DNA of 64,000 bases from assembly GCA_041648595.1 (NCBI GenBank), contig JBAZOQ010000001.1, forward strand, positions 14,002-78,001, read 5' to 3'. Below are positions 19,037-56,762 of the stretch, piece by piece. Each line of letters begins with the position of its first letter. Position 1 is the first letter of the stretch. The position numbers and the translations under genes were made by a program. The notes beneath the pieces are model-generated. The model was not told the DNA's origin and did not search any database. It saw nothing but the letters and a program-made list of their open reading frames with translations. The stretch comes from Minisyncoccota bacterium (lineage in GTDB: Bacteria > Patescibacteriota > Minisyncoccia > Phycocordibacterales > UBA9973).

Positions 19037-19059
19037 TTGCGGAAGCAAGACTTCCGCAA
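19037..19059 (+). repeat. REP-1 palindrome TTGCGGAAGCAAGACTTCCGCAA, immediately upstream of tRNA-Gly.
   Basis: Same palindrome family as the three copies around and inside the RAYT gene at 36.3-37.1 kb. Confidence 0.75.
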
Positions 19060-26179: not shown

Positions 26180-27382
26180 TTAGAGGCTAAGGTTTCCTTT
26201 GGCCTTTATGCTCGAGATTTTTGGTACTTTTTTCTTATTTTTTATAAATTGTAGATATCCAGCTACACCTATCATTATTGAATTATCTCCTGTTAATTTT
26301 TTTTCTGGGAAAAGTAATATAGTATTTTTTTCTACAATTTTTTTCATTTGTCTTTGTAAATGTTCATTACAAGATACACCACCAGCTACTATGATTGTTT
26401 TTGCTTTATATTTTTCTTTTGCTTTAATTGTTTTATAAATAAGAGTTTCTACTACAGCATTTTCAAATTCTAGTGCAATAGCTTGTTTTATTTTTTCATT
26501 TTGCCCGCCTGCCTCGTTATGCGAAGCATTTCGGGCAGGTAATATATTAGGATTTTCTTTTTTAAGGTCACGTATTAAATAAAGTACTGCAGTTTTTAAT
26601 CCTGAAAATGAAAAATCAAAATTTTTACTGTAGAGCATAGGGCGGGGAAGAGCGAAGGAAAAACAATCTTTGTGGGGTGTCTCGCAGGCTGACGAGCCGA
26701 GAGGCAGCGCTCCGCGAGCACGCGGAGACAGCGACCCCAGAAAGATTGGTTTTTCTGTAGCTCTTTTTTTTTCAGCTAATTTTGAAATTTCTGGTCCTCC
26801 TGGATAAGGCAGATCCATCATTCTAGCTACTTTGTCATATGCTTCTCCTGCAGCATCATCTAATGTTTGACCAATGATTTTGTATTGTAGCCAATTTTTT
26901 GAGAGTACAAGCTCTGTGTGCCCACCAGAAACGAGAAGAGATAAAATAGGGAATTCTATTTTAGGAATTGTAAAACTACCCTTGCTTTTAGCAAATACAG
27001 ATACTATATGTCCTTCCATGTGATTAACTGGTATAAGTGGTACATCCCATTTTTCTGCAAGTTCTTTTGCAAAAACTATTCCACTCCAAAGTGAAGGTTC
27101 TAGCCCTGGTCCATAAGTGACTGCTATTAGATCAACTGGTTTTTCTTTTTTAGCTAATTTGGATTTTTTAAGAGCTTTTTCTAATAGTATTGGTAAATTT
27201 TTTATATGTTCACGTTTTGCGAGCATAGGGAATACTCCACCATAAGGAGTATGAATTGCTATTTGTGAATTTGAAAAATTAGATAAAATATTAAATGAAG
27301 CAAAACCATTTTTATTGAGATTTGCATCCATTATTGTTATGGCTGTATCGTCACAGCTAGTTTCTATACTTAATATTTTCAT
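26180..27382 (-). CDS. tsaD: tRNA N6-adenosine threonylcarbamoyltransferase TsaD (Kae1/Gcp family) with a roughly 35-aa in-frame GC-rich insertion.
   Basis: MKILSIETSCDDTAITI, NHMEGHI, SGGHTELV, VAGGVSCN. The inserted segment is GSLSPRARGALPLGSSACETPHKDCFSFALPRP. Confidence 0.85.
   Translation of the reverse strand: MKILSIETSCDDTAITIMDANLNKNGFASFNILSNFSNSQIAIHTPYGGVFPMLAKREHIKNLPILLEKALKKSKLAKKEKPVDLIAVTYGPGLEPSLWSGIVFAKELAEKWDVPLIPVNHMEGHIVSVFAKSKGSFTIPKIEFPILSLLVSGGHTELVLSKNWLQYKIIGQTLDDAAGEAYDKVARMMDLPYPGGPEISKLAEKKRATEKPIFLGSLSPRARGALPLGSSACETPHKDCFSFALPRPMLYSKNFDFSFSGLKTAVLYLIRDLKKENPNILPARNASHNEAGGQNEKIKQAIALEFENAVVETLIYKTIKAKEKYKAKTIIVAGGVSCNEHLQRQMKKIVEKNTILLFPEKKLTGDNSIMIGVAGYLQFIKNKKKVPKISSIKAKGNLSL
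26638..26750 (-). repeat. GC-rich palindromic element of about 110 bp (family D core CGCAGGCTGACGAGCCGAG flanked by imperfect inverted repeats CAATCTTTGTGGGGTGTC / GACAGCGACCCCAGAAAGATTG) inserted in frame in tsaD.
   Basis: GC content far above the surrounding coding sequence. Shares its core with the intergenic element at 26097-26116. Confidence 0.65.
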
Positions 27383-35980: not shown

Positions 35981-36220
35981 TTATAATAAAGAGTAAAATG
36001 GACATTTTTTTTCTAGTAAAATTTTTTTTATTCTTTCGTCGCAATCCGCAGTAGAAAGAACAGATGTTAAAGGGTAATCTTTATCTATGTTTTTTTCACA
36101 TTTTTTACATAGAGAAATTTGACCATTTTTTTTATCATAATACCACTGTCTTGGGTATTTATAATAAACAACTAACAGGTTGTCTTTTTTTTGACAAATT
36201 TCTTCTTTTTTCTTTTTCAT
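35981..36220 (-). CDS. Hypothetical small Cys-containing protein (79 aa).
   Basis: ORF with CKKCEKN...CPFY. Weak evidence. Confidence 0.25.
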   Translation of the reverse strand: MKKKKEEICQKKDNLLVVYYKYPRQWYYDKKNGQISLCKKCEKNIDKDYPLTSVLSTADCDERIKKILLEKKCPFYSLL

Positions 36221-36325
36221 TTTTTATCTCAGTTTTTAAAAAATTAAAAAATATTTTTACAAATTTTTATATCTAATATACATGATACTCTTTTTACTTT
36301 TTAAAATCTAAAAGTTATCCACAAT

Positions 36326-36347
36326 TTGCGGAAGCAAGGCTTCCGCA
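36326..36347 (+). repeat. REP-1 palindrome TTGCGGAAGCAAGGCTTCCGCA, immediately upstream of the RAYT gene.
   Basis: Perfect 9-bp arms GCGGAAGC/GCTTCCGC around CAAGG. Confidence 0.75.
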
Positions 36348-36361
36348 GTACTATAGTTAGT

Positions 36362-37063
36362 ATGGCGTATAGAAAAGCATCTTTTGTAGAAGGAGAATTT
36401 TATCATATTTATAATAGAGGAAATAGTAAACAAAAAATATTTTTAGATAATCATGATTATGATCGTTTTATAAAATTATTATATCTTTGTAATTCAGAAT
36501 ATAGTATTGATTTTCGTGAAGATATAGTAAGACAGGGAATTAATGCTTGGGATTTTGATCGTGGTGAATCTATAGTTTCAATAGGTGCATGGGTATTAAT
36601 GCCAAATCATTTTCATTTATATTTAAATATAAATCCGCGGAAGCAAGGCTTCCGCAAAGTTCGTATTAATGAAATTACAGAATTTATGCACAAACTTTTG
36701 ACATCTTATTCGAAGTATTTTAATACAAAATATAAACGTACAGGAGGATTATTTGAAGGTAAATTTAAATCAGTTCATATAGAGGATGATAATCAAGCAA
36801 AATATCTTTTTTCTTATATTCATTTGAATCCAGTCAAACTTATAGATAGTAAATGGAAAGAAAATGGAATAAAAAATAAAAAACAAACAAAAGATTTTTT
36901 GAATAAATATATATGGTCAAGTTATTTAGATTATAAAGGAATTACTCGTTCCCCAAATAAAATTTTAAATAAAAAGGCATTTCCAGAATACTTTCGTAAT
37001 ATGAAAGATTTTGATTTTGAAATAGGGGAGTGGCTTAATTTTTCGGATTCTGACTTAAATTAA
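36362..37063 (+). CDS. IS200/IS605-family HUH Y1 transposase, REP-associated tyrosine transposase (RAYT)-like. It contains an in-frame REP-1 copy (PRKQGFRK).
   Basis: N-terminal FVEGEFYHIYNRGN, HUH motif MPNHFHLYL, catalytic Tyr region KYLFSYIHLNPVK. Flanked on both sides by REP-1 palindromes. ATG 36362 is preferred over the track's TTG start at 36326, which lies inside the REP. Confidence 0.75.
   Translation: MAYRKASFVEGEFYHIYNRGNSKQKIFLDNHDYDRFIKLLYLCNSEYSIDFREDIVRQGINAWDFDRGESIVSIGAWVLMPNHFHLYLNINPRKQGFRKVRINEITEFMHKLLTSYSKYFNTKYKRTGGLFEGKFKSVHIEDDNQAKYLFSYIHLNPVKLIDSKWKENGIKNKKQTKDFLNKYIWSSYLDYKGITRSPNKILNKKAFPEYFRNMKDFDFEIGEWLNFSDSDLN
36635..36657 (+). repeat. REP-1 palindrome CCGCGGAAGCAAGGCTTCCGCAA inserted in frame within the RAYT gene.
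   Basis: Translated as NPRKQGFRKV directly after the HUH motif. Confidence 0.7.
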
Positions 37064-37096
37064 AATCCAAAAGACCGTCTTTTGGGTAAAAAAAAA

Positions 37097-37119
37097 TTGC
37101 GGAAGCCAGGCTTCCGCAA
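37097..37119 (+). repeat. REP-1 palindrome TTGCGGAAGCCAGGCTTCCGCAA, immediately downstream of the RAYT gene.
   Basis: Read directly. Confidence 0.75.
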
Positions 37120-37444
37120 AATTTAACTTTTGTTGAAATAGAAATACACGTAGTAGAGTGCCAAAAATATGGCGAACAACAAAAAAGAAACTCCGGTACC
37201 TACCCACTGTAGGTTCCAGGCAAATATTATTCCTAAAAAGAACAGGAATAACTCAACAAAAATAAGGAGAATTGTTATCTCCTCTTTGAGGAGAATGTCT
37301 ATCTTCTCTTTTAATGTTTTCATTTTTTCTCCATTTTAATTTTTAATTCCATCAATAGTTTAACACAAAATTGACATAAAAGTCAATGTTTTTCAGTTTC
37401 GAGTTATCCACAGGTAGGGCTTGGCTTCTTTTTTGCTTGTGGTT

Positions 37445-48902: not shown

Positions 48903-48945
48903 ATTATATCTAGTGCCTAGTGCCTAAAGCCTAGTGCCTATTAAC

Positions 48946-49977
48946 ATGGCATTTATAGATGAAATAAAAATATATGGAGAAGCTGGAACTGGTGGGAACG
49001 GTGTTGTTAGATGGCGTCAAGAGAAATTTATACCGAAAGGTGGACCTGCAGGAGGCGATGGTGGACGTGGTGGAGATTTTTATGCGCAGGCTGTTCGCGA
49101 TGTACACATACTTTCAAAATATAAAGCAAAAAAAAGTTTTTACGCAGAAAAAGGTGAGGATGGTGGTAATAAAAGTTTACATGGCAAAAAAGGAGAAGAT
49201 TTCTTTTTGGAATTACCAATAGGATCTATCATTACAAATTTAGATACAGATGAGAGATGGCAGTTACTAAAAGAAGGAGAGAAAATTTTATTATTAAAAG
49301 GTGGGTATGGTGGATTTGGAAATGAACATTTTAAAAGTTCTACTAATACGACTCCAAAAGAATGGCGTCCTGGAGAAGAAGGTGAACATGCTAATTTTCA
49401 TATAGAATTAGAACTTTTTGCTGACATAGGGTTAGTTGGGCTTCCTAATGCCGGTAAATCATCTCTACTTAACTCCATAACGAATGCAGATGCAAAAGTG
49501 GGTGATTATGCCTTTACAACCCTAGATCCTAACCTAGGAGACTTTTATGACTATACCATTGCTGATATCCCAGGACTTATAGAAGGTGCAAATACAGGAA
49601 AAGGATTAGGTGTTAAATTTTTGAGACATATAAAACGTACAAAAATGATTGCGCACCTTGTTTCTTTTGAGAATTTATCTAAGGGTTCTACGGGAATGAT
49701 GAAAGTTTATAAAGAAATTCGTAAAGAATTAGAAAAATATGATAAGAATTTGAAACTCGGAGAGGATGGGTTATCTTTAAAAGATGAAATCATTATTTTG
49801 ACTAAATCTGATATTGTAGAAGATAAAAAAATAATAGAAAGAGAAAAAGATAAATTTAAAAAAATACTTGCCCGTTCTTCTGGTGGAAGTAAAAAAGTTT
49901 TTGTGCTTTCTTTATTTGATGATGATAGTGTAAAAAATTTACGAGATGAACTAGTGAAAATTCTACAAAAGAAATAA
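48946..49977 (+). CDS. obg: GTPase Obg/CgtA.
   Basis: Obg fold N-terminus MAFIDEIKIYGEAGTGGNGVVRWRQEKFIPKGGPAGGDGGRGGDFY. G1 GLPNAGKSSLL, G3 DIPG. The track GTG start 48934 lies inside the CCTAGTG repeat block. Confidence 0.85.
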   Translation: MAFIDEIKIYGEAGTGGNGVVRWRQEKFIPKGGPAGGDGGRGGDFYAQAVRDVHILSKYKAKKSFYAEKGEDGGNKSLHGKKGEDFFLELPIGSIITNLDTDERWQLLKEGEKILLLKGGYGGFGNEHFKSSTNTTPKEWRPGEEGEHANFHIELELFADIGLVGLPNAGKSSLLNSITNADAKVGDYAFTTLDPNLGDFYDYTIADIPGLIEGANTGKGLGVKFLRHIKRTKMIAHLVSFENLSKGSTGMMKVYKEIRKELEKYDKNLKLGEDGLSLKDEIIILTKSDIVEDKKIIEREKDKFKKILARSSGGSKKVFVLSLFDDDSVKNLRDELVKILQKK

Positions 49978-49988
49978 AATCCACAGAG

Positions 49989-50030
49989 GCGTTGCCTCTG
50001 TGGATTATGGATATTTTTATTTAAAAACAT
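49989..50030 (+). terminator. Terminator-like perfect 12-bp hairpin ATCCACAGAGGC-gtt-GCCTCTGTGGAT followed by an A/T-rich tract after obg.
   Basis: Read directly. May also terminate a convergent minus-strand small ORF. Confidence 0.6.
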
Positions 50031-51010: not shown

Positions 51011-52546
51011 ATGGAGAAAAAATATTATCCTACAATTGGATTAGAAATTCATGCAGAACTTAAAACAAATACAAAAATGTTTTGTAGTTGTAAGAATAAT
51101 CCTGATGAAGAAAAACCAAACATAAACATTTGTCCAGTCTGTATGGCTCATCCTGGTACTTTGCCTGTAATAAATAAAAAGGCTATAGAAAATGTTATAA
51201 AAGTTGGTTTAGCTATTGGTGGAGATATTGCAGATTTTACTGAGTTTGATCGTAAAAATTATTTTTACCCAGATATTCCAAAAGGGTATCAAATTTCTCA
51301 ATATAAATATCCAATAATTTCTGGAGGACATCTTGCAGATTTTGATGTGACGCGTGTGCATCTAGAAGAAGATACAGCAAATAATAAACATAGAGATGAA
51401 AAATTTACAGACGTTGGACGTCTGTTACAGACGTCCAACGTCTGTAAAGAAGGATATTCTCTTGTTGATTTTAATCGCGCAGGCGTGCCTTTAATGGAGC
51501 TTGTCACGGAACCACATACTTTTAAAACTGATACTGATGCAGCAAAAGCAGCATCTTTATTTGCGAAAGAACTTCAGCTTATACTTTGGTATTTAGGTGT
51601 TTCTGAAGCAAATATGGAAAAAGGTGAAATGCGAGTAGAAGCGAATATTTCTGTTTCTGATAACATAAAAGCTTTTGAGCTTAATCAGCCAGTCGGATTG
51701 TCAGGAAGAATGGAAGCCATTGCTTCTTTAGGTACAAAGGTAGAAGTAAAAAATTTAAATTCATTTAAAAGTGTCGAGAAAGCTATCAAATTTGAATTAG
51801 ACAGAATGATTGCTCTTTATGAAGAAGGAAAAGCAGATGAAATAGTGCAAGAGACTAGAGGTTGGGATGAGAGTAAACAGAAAACATTCTCACAAAGAAA
51901 AAAGGAATCTAGTCATGATTATAGATATTTTCCAGAACCAGATTTACCAAAAATGAAATTGCATGAAGTTTTTAATTTAAAAGCAATGGAAAAAGTATTA
52001 CCAGAATTACCTCAAGCAAAAAGACTAAGATATAAAAATGATTTTGGAGTAAAAAAGGAAGATATTGAAAGTTATATTAATGATAAAGAATTAGGAGGAT
52101 GGTTTGAAGAAATAGCAAAATCATTAAATGATTCTGAAAAAATAAAAATTGCTTCAAATTATATTACCTCTGATTATTTGGGTTTAAAGAAAGCCAACTT
52201 GGAGGCAAGGCCTCCAAGTGCTGCAAATTTTGCTGAATTAATAAACTTAGTTACTGAAAGTAAAATTTCTTCTCGTTCAGCAAAAGACATTTTAGCGATG
52301 ATTGTATTGAAAGATGAATCTTCACTCAAAATTGCAACAGAAAAAGGTTTACTTCAAAAAAATGATGAGGGAGAAATAAGAAATTTAGTTCAAAAGATAA
52401 TTTCTGAAAATCCTGAAGTAGTGGCTATTTATAAAGGTGGAAAAGAAAATGCAATTATGTCTCTTGTTGGAAAAATTATAAAAGAAAGTAATGGCAGTGC
52501 CAATCCACAAATAGTTATCAAAATGTTGAAAGAAATGTTAAAATAA
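51011..52546 (+). CDS. gatB: Asp-tRNA(Asn)/Glu-tRNA(Gln) amidotransferase subunit B, with two in-frame palindromic insertions.
   Basis: N-terminus YYPTIGLEIHAELKTNTKMFCSC..NINICPVCMAHPGTLP and C-terminal YqeY-like domain. No gatA or gatC in the window. Confidence 0.85.
   Translation: MEKKYYPTIGLEIHAELKTNTKMFCSCKNNPDEEKPNINICPVCMAHPGTLPVINKKAIENVIKVGLAIGGDIADFTEFDRKNYFYPDIPKGYQISQYKYPIISGGHLADFDVTRVHLEEDTANNKHRDEKFTDVGRLLQTSNVCKEGYSLVDFNRAGVPLMELVTEPHTFKTDTDAAKAASLFAKELQLILWYLGVSEANMEKGEMRVEANISVSDNIKAFELNQPVGLSGRMEAIASLGTKVEVKNLNSFKSVEKAIKFELDRMIALYEEGKADEIVQETRGWDESKQKTFSQRKKESSHDYRYFPEPDLPKMKLHEVFNLKAMEKVLPELPQAKRLRYKNDFGVKKEDIESYINDKELGGWFEEIAKSLNDSEKIKIASNYITSDYLGLKKANLEARPPSAANFAELINLVTESKISSRSAKDILAMIVLKDESSLKIATEKGLLQKNDEGEIRNLVQKIISENPEVVAIYKGGKENAIMSLVGKIIKESNGSANPQIVIKMLKEMLK
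51405..51447 (+). repeat. Perfect 43-bp palindrome TTACAGACGTTGGACGTCTGT-t-ACAGACGTCCAACGTCTGTAA (21-bp arms) inside gatB. Translated as FTDVGRLLQTSNVCKEG.
   Basis: Read directly. GC-rich relative to its surroundings. Confidence 0.8.
52198..52218 (+). repeat. REP-1-variant palindrome CTTGGAGGCAAGGCCTCCAAG in frame in gatB (ANLEARPPSAA).
   Basis: Same stem-CAAGG-stem architecture as REP-1, with compensatory stem changes. Confidence 0.6.
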
Positions 52547-54956: not shown

Positions 54957-56762
54957 GTGAAAGAAGAAATACTAAAATTTTTTAATGGGGAAGTAGAAGA
55001 TAGCGAAGAAACACTTTTAAAATATTCGCGTGATGCGAGTATTTTTGAATTACGACCAAAGCTTGTTCTTTTCCCTTTGGACTCAAAAGATGTTCAGAAT
55101 TTAGTGAAATGGGTAAGTGAAAATAAAGATAAATATGCCGATCCTGAAAAAAATAAAGATTATAAAAATCTTTCCATTACTTGCAGATGCGCAGGAACAG
55201 ATATGTCAGGTGGTGCTATAGGTGAATCTTTGATTTTGGATTTCACTCGGCATATGAATAAGTTGATACGACCACCTCGCCCTTTGGGCACTCCTCCTTC
55301 AAAAGGAGGAGAAGATTTTTCTCCCCTCCTTGGTGAGGAGGGGGCTGGGGGTGGTGATTATTCCATCACTGTGCAGCCCGGTATGTTTTATCGAGATTTT
55401 GAAAAAATAACTTTAGAAAAAGGACTTATTTTGCCTTGTTACACTGCATCAAAGAGTTTGAATGCTATGGGTGGAATGTTTGGTAATAATTCGGCTGGAG
55501 AGCGAACTCTTAAATATGGGAAAACAGAAGATTATATTTTAGAAACAAAGATAGTTTTTTCTGATGGTAATGAATATATTATAAAACCATTAACTCAAAA
55601 TGAATTAACTAAAAAAATAATGCAGTCAAATTTTGAGAGTGAAATTTATAAAAATATTTATAATTTAATAAATGAAAATAAAGAAGAAATAAAAAATGCC
55701 AAACCAGCGGTCAGTAAAAATTCTGCAGGATATTATATTTGGAATGTAATTGGAGATTTTTTTGATTTAAACAAACTTTTAGTTGGTTCTCAAGGCACAT
55801 TGGGTATAGCTACCGAAATTACTTTTAAACTTGTTAAAAATCCTAAACATTCTAAACTTGTAGTTATTTTTGTTAATGGATTAGAACCATTGGGTCGTCT
55901 TGTGGATGAAATTTTACAATTTAAACCAGAAACACTTGAGACATATGATGATAAAACTATAAAATTAGCAGTTAGATTTTTTCCAGATTTTCTTAAAAAT
56001 AAAGGTCTTCTTGGTATGATAAAATTTATGTGGAGTTTTTTACCTGAATTGAAAATGATGTTCAATAGTCTTTTTGGGGGTGGTTTCCCAAAATTAATTA
56101 TTCTTGCAGAGTTTGCTGGTGAAGATGAATCTATGATAGACAGGCAATGTATTTCTTTAAAAGAAAAGATTTCCGCCAAAGGCGGACCAGCCTCAGGCTG
56201 GAAAAATATAAATGTTCATATTACAAAGTCAGAGATAGAAGCAAATAAATATTGGGATATTAGAAGAGAAAGTTTTTCTTTACTACGTAAACATGTCAAA
56301 GGTCTTCATACTGCTCCATTTATAGATGATATTATAGTTCGTCCAGAATTTTTGCCAAAATTTATTCCTGAGCTTAATCAAATTTTTTCAAAATATGATT
56401 TGAATTATACAATAGCAGGACATATAGGAGATGGTAATCTTCACGTCATTCCTCTTATGGATTTTAAACATCCTGATACACCTAAAATAATAATAGAACT
56501 TGGAGAGAAAGTGTATGATCTTATTATAAAATATCATGGTTCTATTACAGCAGAACACAATGATGGTATAGTTCGTACTTTATATTTAGAAAAAATGTAC
56601 GGGAAAAAGATGGTTGCAATTTTTGGAGAAATAAAAAAAATATTTGATTTGAAAAATATTTTTAATCCAGGTAAAAAAACATTTTCAGAAGATGGTGGTG
56701 GAACAAAAGAATATATGATTTCACATATTGCACTGGAACATAGCGTAATACATAAAGTTTAA
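54957..56762 (+). CDS. FAD-linked oxidase (PCMH-type FAD-binding domain plus FAD-oxidase C-terminal domain; glycolate oxidase GlcD / D-lactate dehydrogenase-like) with a roughly 30-aa GC-rich insertion.
   Basis: FAD-binding N-terminus and C-terminal GHIGDGNLHV. The insertion is RPPRPLGTPPSKGGEDFSPLLGEEGAGGGD. Confidence 0.7.
   Translation: MKEEILKFFNGEVEDSEETLLKYSRDASIFELRPKLVLFPLDSKDVQNLVKWVSENKDKYADPEKNKDYKNLSITCRCAGTDMSGGAIGESLILDFTRHMNKLIRPPRPLGTPPSKGGEDFSPLLGEEGAGGGDYSITVQPGMFYRDFEKITLEKGLILPCYTASKSLNAMGGMFGNNSAGERTLKYGKTEDYILETKIVFSDGNEYIIKPLTQNELTKKIMQSNFESEIYKNIYNLINENKEEIKNAKPAVSKNSAGYYIWNVIGDFFDLNKLLVGSQGTLGIATEITFKLVKNPKHSKLVVIFVNGLEPLGRLVDEILQFKPETLETYDDKTIKLAVRFFPDFLKNKGLLGMIKFMWSFLPELKMMFNSLFGGGFPKLIILAEFAGEDESMIDRQCISLKEKISAKGGPASGWKNINVHITKSEIEANKYWDIRRESFSLLRKHVKGLHTAPFIDDIIVRPEFLPKFIPELNQIFSKYDLNYTIAGHIGDGNLHVIPLMDFKHPDTPKIIIELGEKVYDLIIKYHGSITAEHNDGIVRTLYLEKMYGKKMVAIFGEIKKIFDLKNIFNPGKKTFSEDGGGTKEYMISHIALEHSVIHKV
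55271..55368 (+). repeat. GC-rich insertion of about 100 bp in the FAD oxidase gene, containing nested palindromes CTCCTCCTT-caa-AAGGAGGAG and CCCCTCC-ttggtga-GGAGGGG.
   Basis: Read directly. More than 60% GC against about 30% in the gene. Confidence 0.65.

Follow-up and report, generated by a model that had tools for sequence, protein, structure and literature searches.

The TnpA_REP proteins, class 2 TnpA_Y1 enzymes also known as RAYTs, cleave and rejoin single-stranded hairpins of repetitive extragenic palindromes (REPs), with which they co-evolve (PMC3479197, PMC8266576). REPs located in frame within the tnpA_REP gene itself, in a peripheral loop between the HuH and Tyr motifs, were described as unique to subclass 2.4, i.e., the Bertels group 4 RAYTs of Cyanobacteria and Bacteroidetes (Quentin, Siguier, Chandler and Fichant, 2018; PMC6006769), and intragenic REPs have also been described by Di Nocera (2013; PMC3733652). 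For subclass 2.1 (Bertels group 1, TIRYT) no REPs were reported (PMC6006769, PMC5581495, PMC3733652), and our literature search found no paper that links Patescibacteria with RAYT or REP. Here we analyse a 64-kb stretch (30.8% GC) of the Minisyncoccota contig JBAZOQ010000001.1, hereafter the window, in which a RAYT-like gene is both flanked and interrupted in frame by a short palindrome of its own. The arrangement is a new lineage and a variant of the REP/RAYT ("REPtron") phenomenon described in 2018; what is new is the phylum, the subclass-2.1-like protein, the lack of GTAG foot, the very low copy number and the overlap of the upstream palindrome with a putative promoter. With moderate confidence we favour its explanation as a REPtron-type unit, that is, a vertically inherited and domesticated gene of a RAYT-like Y1 HUH endonuclease together with its own cognate palindromes. 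The features of the window on which the argument is built are the following:

36326-36348, no strand assigned: upstream palindrome (U), TGCGGAAGC-AAG-GCTTCCGCA, perfect stem of 9 bp
36349-36354, plus strand: putative -10 box TACTAT, 7 nt ahead of the ATG
36362-37063, plus strand: coding sequence (CDS) of a predicted RAYT-like (class 2 TnpA_Y1) HUH single-strand DNA endonuclease, 233 amino acids (aa)
36608-36616, plus strand: codons of the HUH motif H83-F84-H85, invariant in alignment A1
36635-36657, no strand assigned: internal palindrome (I), GCGGAAGC-AAG-GCTTCCGC, perfect stem of 8 bp
36815-36817, plus strand: codon of the catalytic Tyr, Y152 of YIHLNP; Y152-I-H-L-N156 is invariant
37097-37119, no strand assigned: downstream palindrome (D), TTGCGGAAGC-CAG-GCTTCCGCAA, perfect stem of 10 bp
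19037-19059, no strand assigned: dispersed copy of the palindrome with one C:A mismatch in the stem

An earlier sequence-only reading of the window had placed the palindrome at 36326, 36635, 37097 and 19037, and all four copies are indeed found there, each with one or two mismatches to the 23-mer quoted in that reading; the same search in 100 dinucleotide-preserving shuffles of the window returned 0 matches. The start codon of the gene is ATG 36362 and not TTG 36326 of the ORF (open reading frame) finder, as M1 is invariant in the alignment with 28 homologues, and the U copy, which ends 13 nt 5' of this ATG, is therefore outside the CDS. The I copy is in frame, 20 nt 3' of the HUH codons, as had been claimed, and encodes PRKQGFRK, and the D copy lies 33 nt past the stop codon. 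The fourth copy was expected in front of tRNA-Gly; it is present 5 nt ahead of tRNA-Gly(CCC) and 15 nt past the stop of a YtxH-like gene, but as an imperfect palindrome.

The 233-aa product is identical to the protein WC839_00190 of an NCBI metagenome-assembled genome (Candidatus Paceibacterota). Its relatives at E < 1e-5 number over 7,800, and those that are named all come from Patescibacteria; at E ≤ 1e-3 the relatives form 11,871 clusters (50% clustering). Both catalytic motifs, H83-F-H85 and S-Y152-I-H-L-N, are invariant in 29 aligned homologues, and the conservation of catalytic residues that the earlier reading had proposed to check is seen for H83, H85 and Y152 in alignment A1. In the AlphaFold2 model (mean predicted local distance difference test score, pLDDT, of 77.6), H83-F84-H85 is placed on strand E83-90 and Y152 on helix H144-160. 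A search of PDB sequences with the family profile gave no match at E ≤ 1; by fold, the best PDB match of the model (Foldseek) is 4ER8, the E. coli TnpA_REP bound to REP hairpin (E = 1.7e-5), followed by ISDra2 TnpA and IS608 TnpA, with the top matches at probability 1.00 and E values of 1.7e-5 to 2e-3. The model thus shows a predicted TnpA-type fold for the protein. Residues ~91-103, encoded by the I copy, form a loop that leads from the HUH strand to the helix after it, with pLDDT of 58 as compared to 88-94 of the neighbouring residues.

Judged by motif inspection, the protein appears to fit subclass 2.1 better than subclass 2.4. NHFH, YIHLNP, WSSY and the length of 233 aa agree with the subclass 2.1 signature (NH[YF]H, W[EQ] or FQ, Y[IV]HLNP, SS proximal tail, median of 238 aa), the W-motif being FE, i.e., between the listed variants. 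Subclass 2.4 is characterised by NH[IFV]H, WQ, YIxNNP, a length of ~194 aa and no SS tail, which by the same inspection differs from NHFH, FE, YIHLNP, the WSSY tail and 233 aa of the patescibacterial protein. In the layout of the locus the likeness is to subclass 2.4, in which cognate REPs flank the gene and a REP is found in frame inside it, in the β3-αC region of the HuH-Tyr interval. The patescibacterial arrangement differs from subclass 2.4 in the phylum, in the internal copy that is fixed at one position across a clade and is shown, by comparison of orthologous loci, to evolve jointly with the copies on the flanks, and in the palindromes, which are short, perfect and without GT[AG]G foot, as opposed to the long or 'double-foot' REPs of that subclass. 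The 'TIRtrons' of subclass 2.1/TIRYT likewise have low-copy, gene-specific flanking repeats, of which some are self-complementary (Di Nocera, 2013, PMC3733652; Quentin et al., 2018), but those are terminal inverted repeats with the consensus GGGGWSAS, whereas each patescibacterial flank is a perfect palindrome (consensus compared by eye). Unlike subclass 2.1, the patescibacterial gene has an internal copy, and a C-terminal Bac_DnaA_C/helix-turn-helix (HTH) domain was not detected, with no Pfam match to Bac_DnaA_C, HTH_23 or HTH_28 at E ≤ 1 in 29 members. A DnaA-like C-terminal HTH, a candidate prompted by what is published on subclass 2.1 and by the DnaA-box-like motifs close to the hairpins, was rejected on this result.

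That the palindrome belongs to the gene is argued by the comparison of related loci. The genomic loci of 80 relatives, with proteins 59-82% identical, were retrieved and 71 of them were analysed for hairpins. Past the NHFH codons, at a distance of 18-60 nt, 55 of the 71 have a strong, perfect hairpin rich in GC, and a matching palindrome is found just 5' of the start in 52 and just 3' of the stop in 48 of these 55 loci. An unbiased test was also performed, in which the best hairpin was sought independently in the U, I and D regions and the loop-proximal 7-nt arm was compared. The arm is identical between U and I at 43/71, between I and D at 45/70 and between U and D at 41/70 loci, as compared to ~5% of between-locus pairs (4.5% for U and D of different loci). 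Strong hairpins are present in 83% of U, 77% of I and 84% of D regions, and in 4.9% of random 215-nt regions. Across the 71 patescibacterial loci there are 31 distinct arms. The three-hairpin layout thus recurs with locus-specific sequences, which bears out the earlier claim that the gene is bracketed and interrupted by its own cognate palindrome. As for orientation, U is inverted relative to I at 37 of 52 loci, D has the same orientation as I at 32 of 48, and U and D are oppositely oriented at 25 of 44.

Could these be simply the generic terminator or punctuation hairpins, rich in GC, of AT-rich genomes, unrelated to the enzyme? Other GC-rich palindromes of the window do occur at gene ends and inside gatB, and several D and U copies are followed by T-runs. 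Nevertheless, generic hairpins would not be expected to be locus-specific and identical at three sites including one within a CDS, to differ between the paralogues of one genome and to track the protein tree, at frequencies to be set against the 4.9% of random regions, and we regard this explanation as hardly credible.

The I hairpin is kept at the DNA level in 55-63 of the 71 loci and its peptide is variable: the encoded peptides (RKQGFRK, EARLP, HMSDMW, PEEGLRG and others) are unrelated among loci, and one and the same DNA palindrome is translated in two different frames, depending on the locus. The conserved object is therefore the DNA palindrome and not the peptide. Structure at the level of RNA, in the form of long-range U-I pairing in the mRNA, was also considered and dropped, since the 22 stem mismatches in 193 hairpins (3 GT, 10 AC and 9 other) show no G:T excess and U seems to lie 5' of a leaderless start.

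The copies of one locus are also tied together in evolution. In the window the gene order is greA-lysS-gene-mraZ-rsmH; upstream lysS is common to 10 other loci, of which 8 also have mraZ-rsmH downstream, and LysS proteins of this group are 49-84% identical. The palindromes of the lysS group differ (GCGGAAGC-aag, GCGGAAGAC-c, GCGGAAGTC-c, GCCAAAGC-aag, CCCCGAAGA-agg), and the copies within one locus usually match; among the orthologous loci of the larger synteny groups the palindromes differ as well. A further case is a pair of orthologous loci, L061 and L046, with conserved flanks; the codons that adjoin the internal copy on its two sides are conserved too. All five hairpin sites of L061 (two upstream intergenic sites, U, I and D) are CCGGACACC-n-GGTGTCCGG, and in L046 one intergenic site, U, I and D are exactly CCCTAAGTC-n-GACTTAGGG, with an additional intergenic copy that has one mismatch. 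Three to five identical copies per locus, combined with divergence between orthologous loci, require repeated copying between the sites; selection on each hairpin alone would not preserve the identity of copies. Furthermore, genomes with 2-4 paralogues have a different palindrome at each, and the hairpin classes track the protein tree. The hairpin copies of a locus evolve in concert, and hairpin and protein co-diverge.

The same loci bear on the question whether the 794-bp unit is an autonomous, still mobile IS200-like insertion sequence (IS), with U and D as its left- and right-end hairpins. Its size and the lone tnpA-like gene between subterminal hairpins resemble IS200, several genomes have 2-4 copies, and at ~13 of the 80 loci (L001, L012, L013, L015, L016, L022, L023, L024, L028, L033, L044, L071 and L080) a contig ends within 300 bp of the gene. 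However, the loci occupy a few deeply conserved syntenic positions, e.g., greA-lysS-gene-mraZ-rsmH, with LysS down to 49% identical. A few synteny groups have 8-9 member loci and others are smaller, which indicates that the loci are ancient paralogues at fixed positions. Within-genome paralogues belong to different clades of the protein tree and have different hairpins, and none are near-identical. The Tyr motif is YIHLNP, of the class 2 Y---NP type and not the IS200 Y---Q (criterion of PMC6006769, Table 1), and the protein has 233 aa versus ~150. The contig ends are explicable by repeated palindromes that tangle short-read assembly graphs, and are probably assembly breaks rather than signs of mobility. 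An active IS was rejected on the basis of synteny and paralogue divergence, and the whole explanation is very improbable.

Where does the internal copy come from? Representatives below ~50% identity have a short, 10-aa loop (NHFHLLVREKxEGGISxFM). This short-loop branch was sampled in 79 metagenomic loci, and at 44 of 74 a common 9-mer is present in the best hairpins of the two flanks (control 3.8%); the matched flanking hairpins are often inverted doublets. A strong internal hairpin was found in only two loci of the branch, whose loops are longer; at one of these two, L137, I and D have identical sequences. In addition, a 51%-identical paralogue in L068 has flanking palindromes without the internal one. 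Given the short-loop relatives and the L068 paralogue, cognate palindromes on the flanks are what the family generally has. The internal copy, a derived feature, was inserted in frame at a single loop and became fixed in a large clade, and in the RAYT-like family it arose at least three times. In L034 and L042 the internal hairpin is lost and U and D are kept; D is there a REPIN-like inverted doublet with a 4-nt spacer, CCCACATGTCGGACATGTGGGA-acgc-TCCCACATGTCCGACATGTGGG.

Outside the locus the palindrome is rare. Counted with at most one mismatch, outside the gene and in the ±10-kb flanks of relatives (780 kb in total), there are 18 dispersed copies, i.e., 1 per 43 kb, and the window has a single copy beyond the locus in 64 kb. 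As to the anticipated enrichment near the gene, half of the 18 copies are within 1.5 kb of it. One dispersed site, at 1834-1877 of L016, is an inverted doublet of the cognate palindrome (GCGGAAGCCTTGCTTCCGC-taatta-GCGGAAGCAAGGCTTCCGC), located in frame in the linker between the transmembrane and nucleotide-binding domains (TMD-NBD) of a 602-aa ATP-binding cassette (ABC) exporter, 1.1 kb downstream of the RAYT-like gene.

In these respects the patescibacterial system may be compared with the E. coli TnpA_REP (YafM) REPtron and the Pseudomonas RAYT/REPIN system. It shares with them a housekeeping-like, vertically inherited gene with cognate flanking palindromes that are usually inverted, one palindrome family per paralogue and enzyme-repeat co-evolution. 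In the canonical systems copies are dispersed by the hundreds, the repeats carry a GTAG foot, and the stems are bulged or REPIN doublets are formed, in contrast to ~3-5 copies per locus, ~1 per 43 kb in flanks, no GTAG and perfect stems in Patescibacteria. The other comparison is to Rickettsia palindromic elements (RPE), reportedly described by Ogata in 2000 as in-frame palindromic inserts in coding genes; they are said to be 100-150 bp long and without a tie to a neighbouring cognate enzyme gene. Like RPE and intragenic REPs, the I copy and the doublet of the L016 ABC exporter are in-frame inserts in tolerant loops or linkers, but the patescibacterial insert is ~20-27 bp and, unlike RPE, resides within the gene of its own presumed enzyme.

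In the explanation that we favour, the palindromes, as hairpins on single-stranded DNA, would be the substrates of the enzyme and would occupy three sites: the promoter region, the position just past the stop codon and, in frame, the loop of low pLDDT that follows the HUH strand and precedes the next helix. The peptide encoded by the I copy varies freely between relatives, and hence this loop seems to tolerate it. Within a locus the copies would be repeatedly re-copied from each other, so that they would stay identical while the stem drifts between species. The copying agent is most likely the cleave-and-rejoin activity of the enzyme, with a preference for sites close to its own gene; hairpin-templated conversion could serve instead. 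Selection would remove insertions everywhere but in that loop, and a few copies would land elsewhere, between genes or in frame in the linkers of other proteins. We infer both the binding and cleavage by the 233-aa protein and the mechanism of copying from the arrangement of loci.

Several observations weigh against this explanation. The Y1 HUH/RAYT identity proposed earlier stands with respect to the invariant HUH and Tyr residues and the best fold match, 4ER8, but the protein is under the curated family cut-offs: Pfam PF01797 Y1_Tnp scores 21.1 bits (E = 3.7e-4; gathering cut-off 23) and NCBIfam NF047646 REP_Tyr_transpos 47.3 bits (E = 1.9e-12; cut-off 80). Y1_Tnp is matched by 29 of 29 aligned relatives, with the best E of 1.5e-5. 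The GT[AG]G foot of canonical REPs accompanies 4 of 155 hairpins and 4.3% of random positions. The palindromes are nearly symmetric, so that their orientation comes from the loop alone, and they are without the bulges or irregularities by which the characterised TnpA_REP proteins distinguish strands. The copy number beyond the locus is very low and 'dissemination' is weak. Template switching during replication, from one palindrome to another nearby, could also homogenise the copies with no part played by the enzyme, and the long-kept perfect internal hairpin could have a function outside this explanation. Of the tnpA(REP)/REP-BIME arrangement (BIME, bacterial interspersed mosaic element) that the sequence-only reading had recognised, a RAYT-like gene with cognate palindromes is retained, but no REP doublet (BIME) was found in the 64-kb window.

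The position of the hairpins relative to expression signals raises a further question. The window has the layout TTGCGG, 17 nt, TACTAT, 7 nt, ATG, in which U covers the putative -35 element and spacer. A strict consensus promoter scan did not call this putative promoter in the window. In nearly all related loci a TATAAT-like box is found 5-9 nt 5' of the ATG, which implies a leaderless mRNA, and U abuts the box or sits immediately 5' of it. U would thus overlap the promoter of a gene with a putatively leaderless transcript. I and D resemble intrinsic terminators on the minus strand, and D, followed by T8, would terminate a minus-strand ORF of 66 aa (37123-37323).

These signals are an argument for a mainly cis-regulatory role of the hairpins, according to which U tunes or occludes the promoter, D and minus-strand I stop convergent or antisense transcription, and the protein binds all three copies and represses itself, with I kept for function. 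At nearly all loci the -10/-35 region of the gene, which is probably leaderless, is overlapped or directly adjoined by U, the terminator-like nature of I and D on the minus strand would suit this role, the internal hairpin is a perfect palindrome in ~80-90% of the large clade, and E. coli TnpA_REP is strongly down-regulated and auto-inhibited (PMC3479197). Yet regulatory hairpins need not be mutually identical, and these are; copies also occur at unrelated sites, and there are short-loop relatives without the I copy. As the principal explanation, cis-regulation is unlikely, though it deserves to be taken seriously, and it is compatible with a REPtron-type unit rather than exclusive of it.

One may also ask if the gene is itself a substrate of its product. 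The enzyme would then bind or cut its own gene in the single-stranded state, and the outcome would be either a circuit that limits itself or the reversible excision or conversion of the segment between U and I, which includes the promoter and that half of the gene in which the HUH motif is encoded; the paralogues would be host-serving, e.g., in the processing of hairpin DNA at replication forks or gene boundaries, and not transposon relics. We put this forward as speculation with a rather small chance of being right. The presence of up to four or more conserved paralogues at fixed positions in streamlined genomes argues for a host benefit.

For the REPtron type of unit, the range is extended to Patescibacteria and to a TnpA_Y1 lineage for whose nearest described subclass, 2.1, no REPs had been reported. 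Many orthologous loci with three fixed sites, at which the stems change together, provide a natural test of enzyme-hairpin co-evolution and of the re-copying of repeats. The palindromes have practical consequences as well, i.e., false N- and C-terminal extensions, variable loop peptides and, probably, broken short-read assemblies. In the homologues P0009, P0019 and P0121 the N- or C-terminal extensions are translated flanking palindromes (FAEARLPQ; RKSDFRK; and NPKGNLLG, which recurs in the loop and C-terminally); such palindrome-translated termini of annotated homologues are gene-calling artefacts that result from the repeats.

The remaining palindromes of the window do not support the picture of a genome littered with GC-rich palindromes that this enzyme mobilises: there are ~8 GC-rich perfect hairpin sites, of which 3 are at the RAYT-like gene, and the others carry other sequences. 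The hairpin at 26710-26727 (CTCCGCG-agca-CGCGGAG) and two hairpins at 55291-55343 (CTCCTCC/CCCCTCC) are unlike the palindrome of the gene. The one at 49967-50017 (CCACAGAGGC...GCCTCTGTGG), where ORF 48934-49977 ends, is similar to the class of palindrome found at locus L021 (AGCCAGAGGC-ctt-GCCTCTGGCT).

In gatB, which had been proposed to hold a compensatory variant of the repeat, a palindrome is indeed present at 52197-52219 (ACTTGGAGGC-AAG-GCCTCCAAGT), encoding NLEARPPS in the linker ahead of the tail domain. As an insertion it was rejected, because it adds zero length relative to GatB of T. maritima and A. aeolicus, the solved structures, and the claim that it is a variant of the repeat is not supported. 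The same ORF contains, at 51404-51448, a 45-nt perfect palindrome with 22-nt arms (TTTACAGACGTTGGACGTCTGT / ACAGACGTCCAACGTCTGTAAA) that encodes FTDVGRLLQTSNVCK, and its first arm spans the conserved D-x-G-K/R-L motif of GatB; the window GatB is 3 aa longer than that of T. maritima. Similar palindromes, GACGTnnnACGTC, adjoin RAYT-type hairpins in L046.

Two minus-strand ORFs lie beside the gene, 35981-36220 (79 aa, Cys-rich) and the above-mentioned 37123-37323, whose product is hydrophobic; for both, there was no Pfam match and no tblastn match in the syntenic loci of relatives. The DnaA-box-like sequence TT[AT]TCCACA occurs 7 times in the window versus 2.3 expected (36315-36323, 37404-37412, and also 29637, 29686, 10240, 37895 and 45016); one copy abuts palindrome U and another is located ahead of mraZ. 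At the loci of relatives, 13 of the 48 downstream hairpins have T[TG][ATG]TCCAC no more than 40 nt away (~1.6 expected), usually directly 3' of the hairpin on the gene strand.

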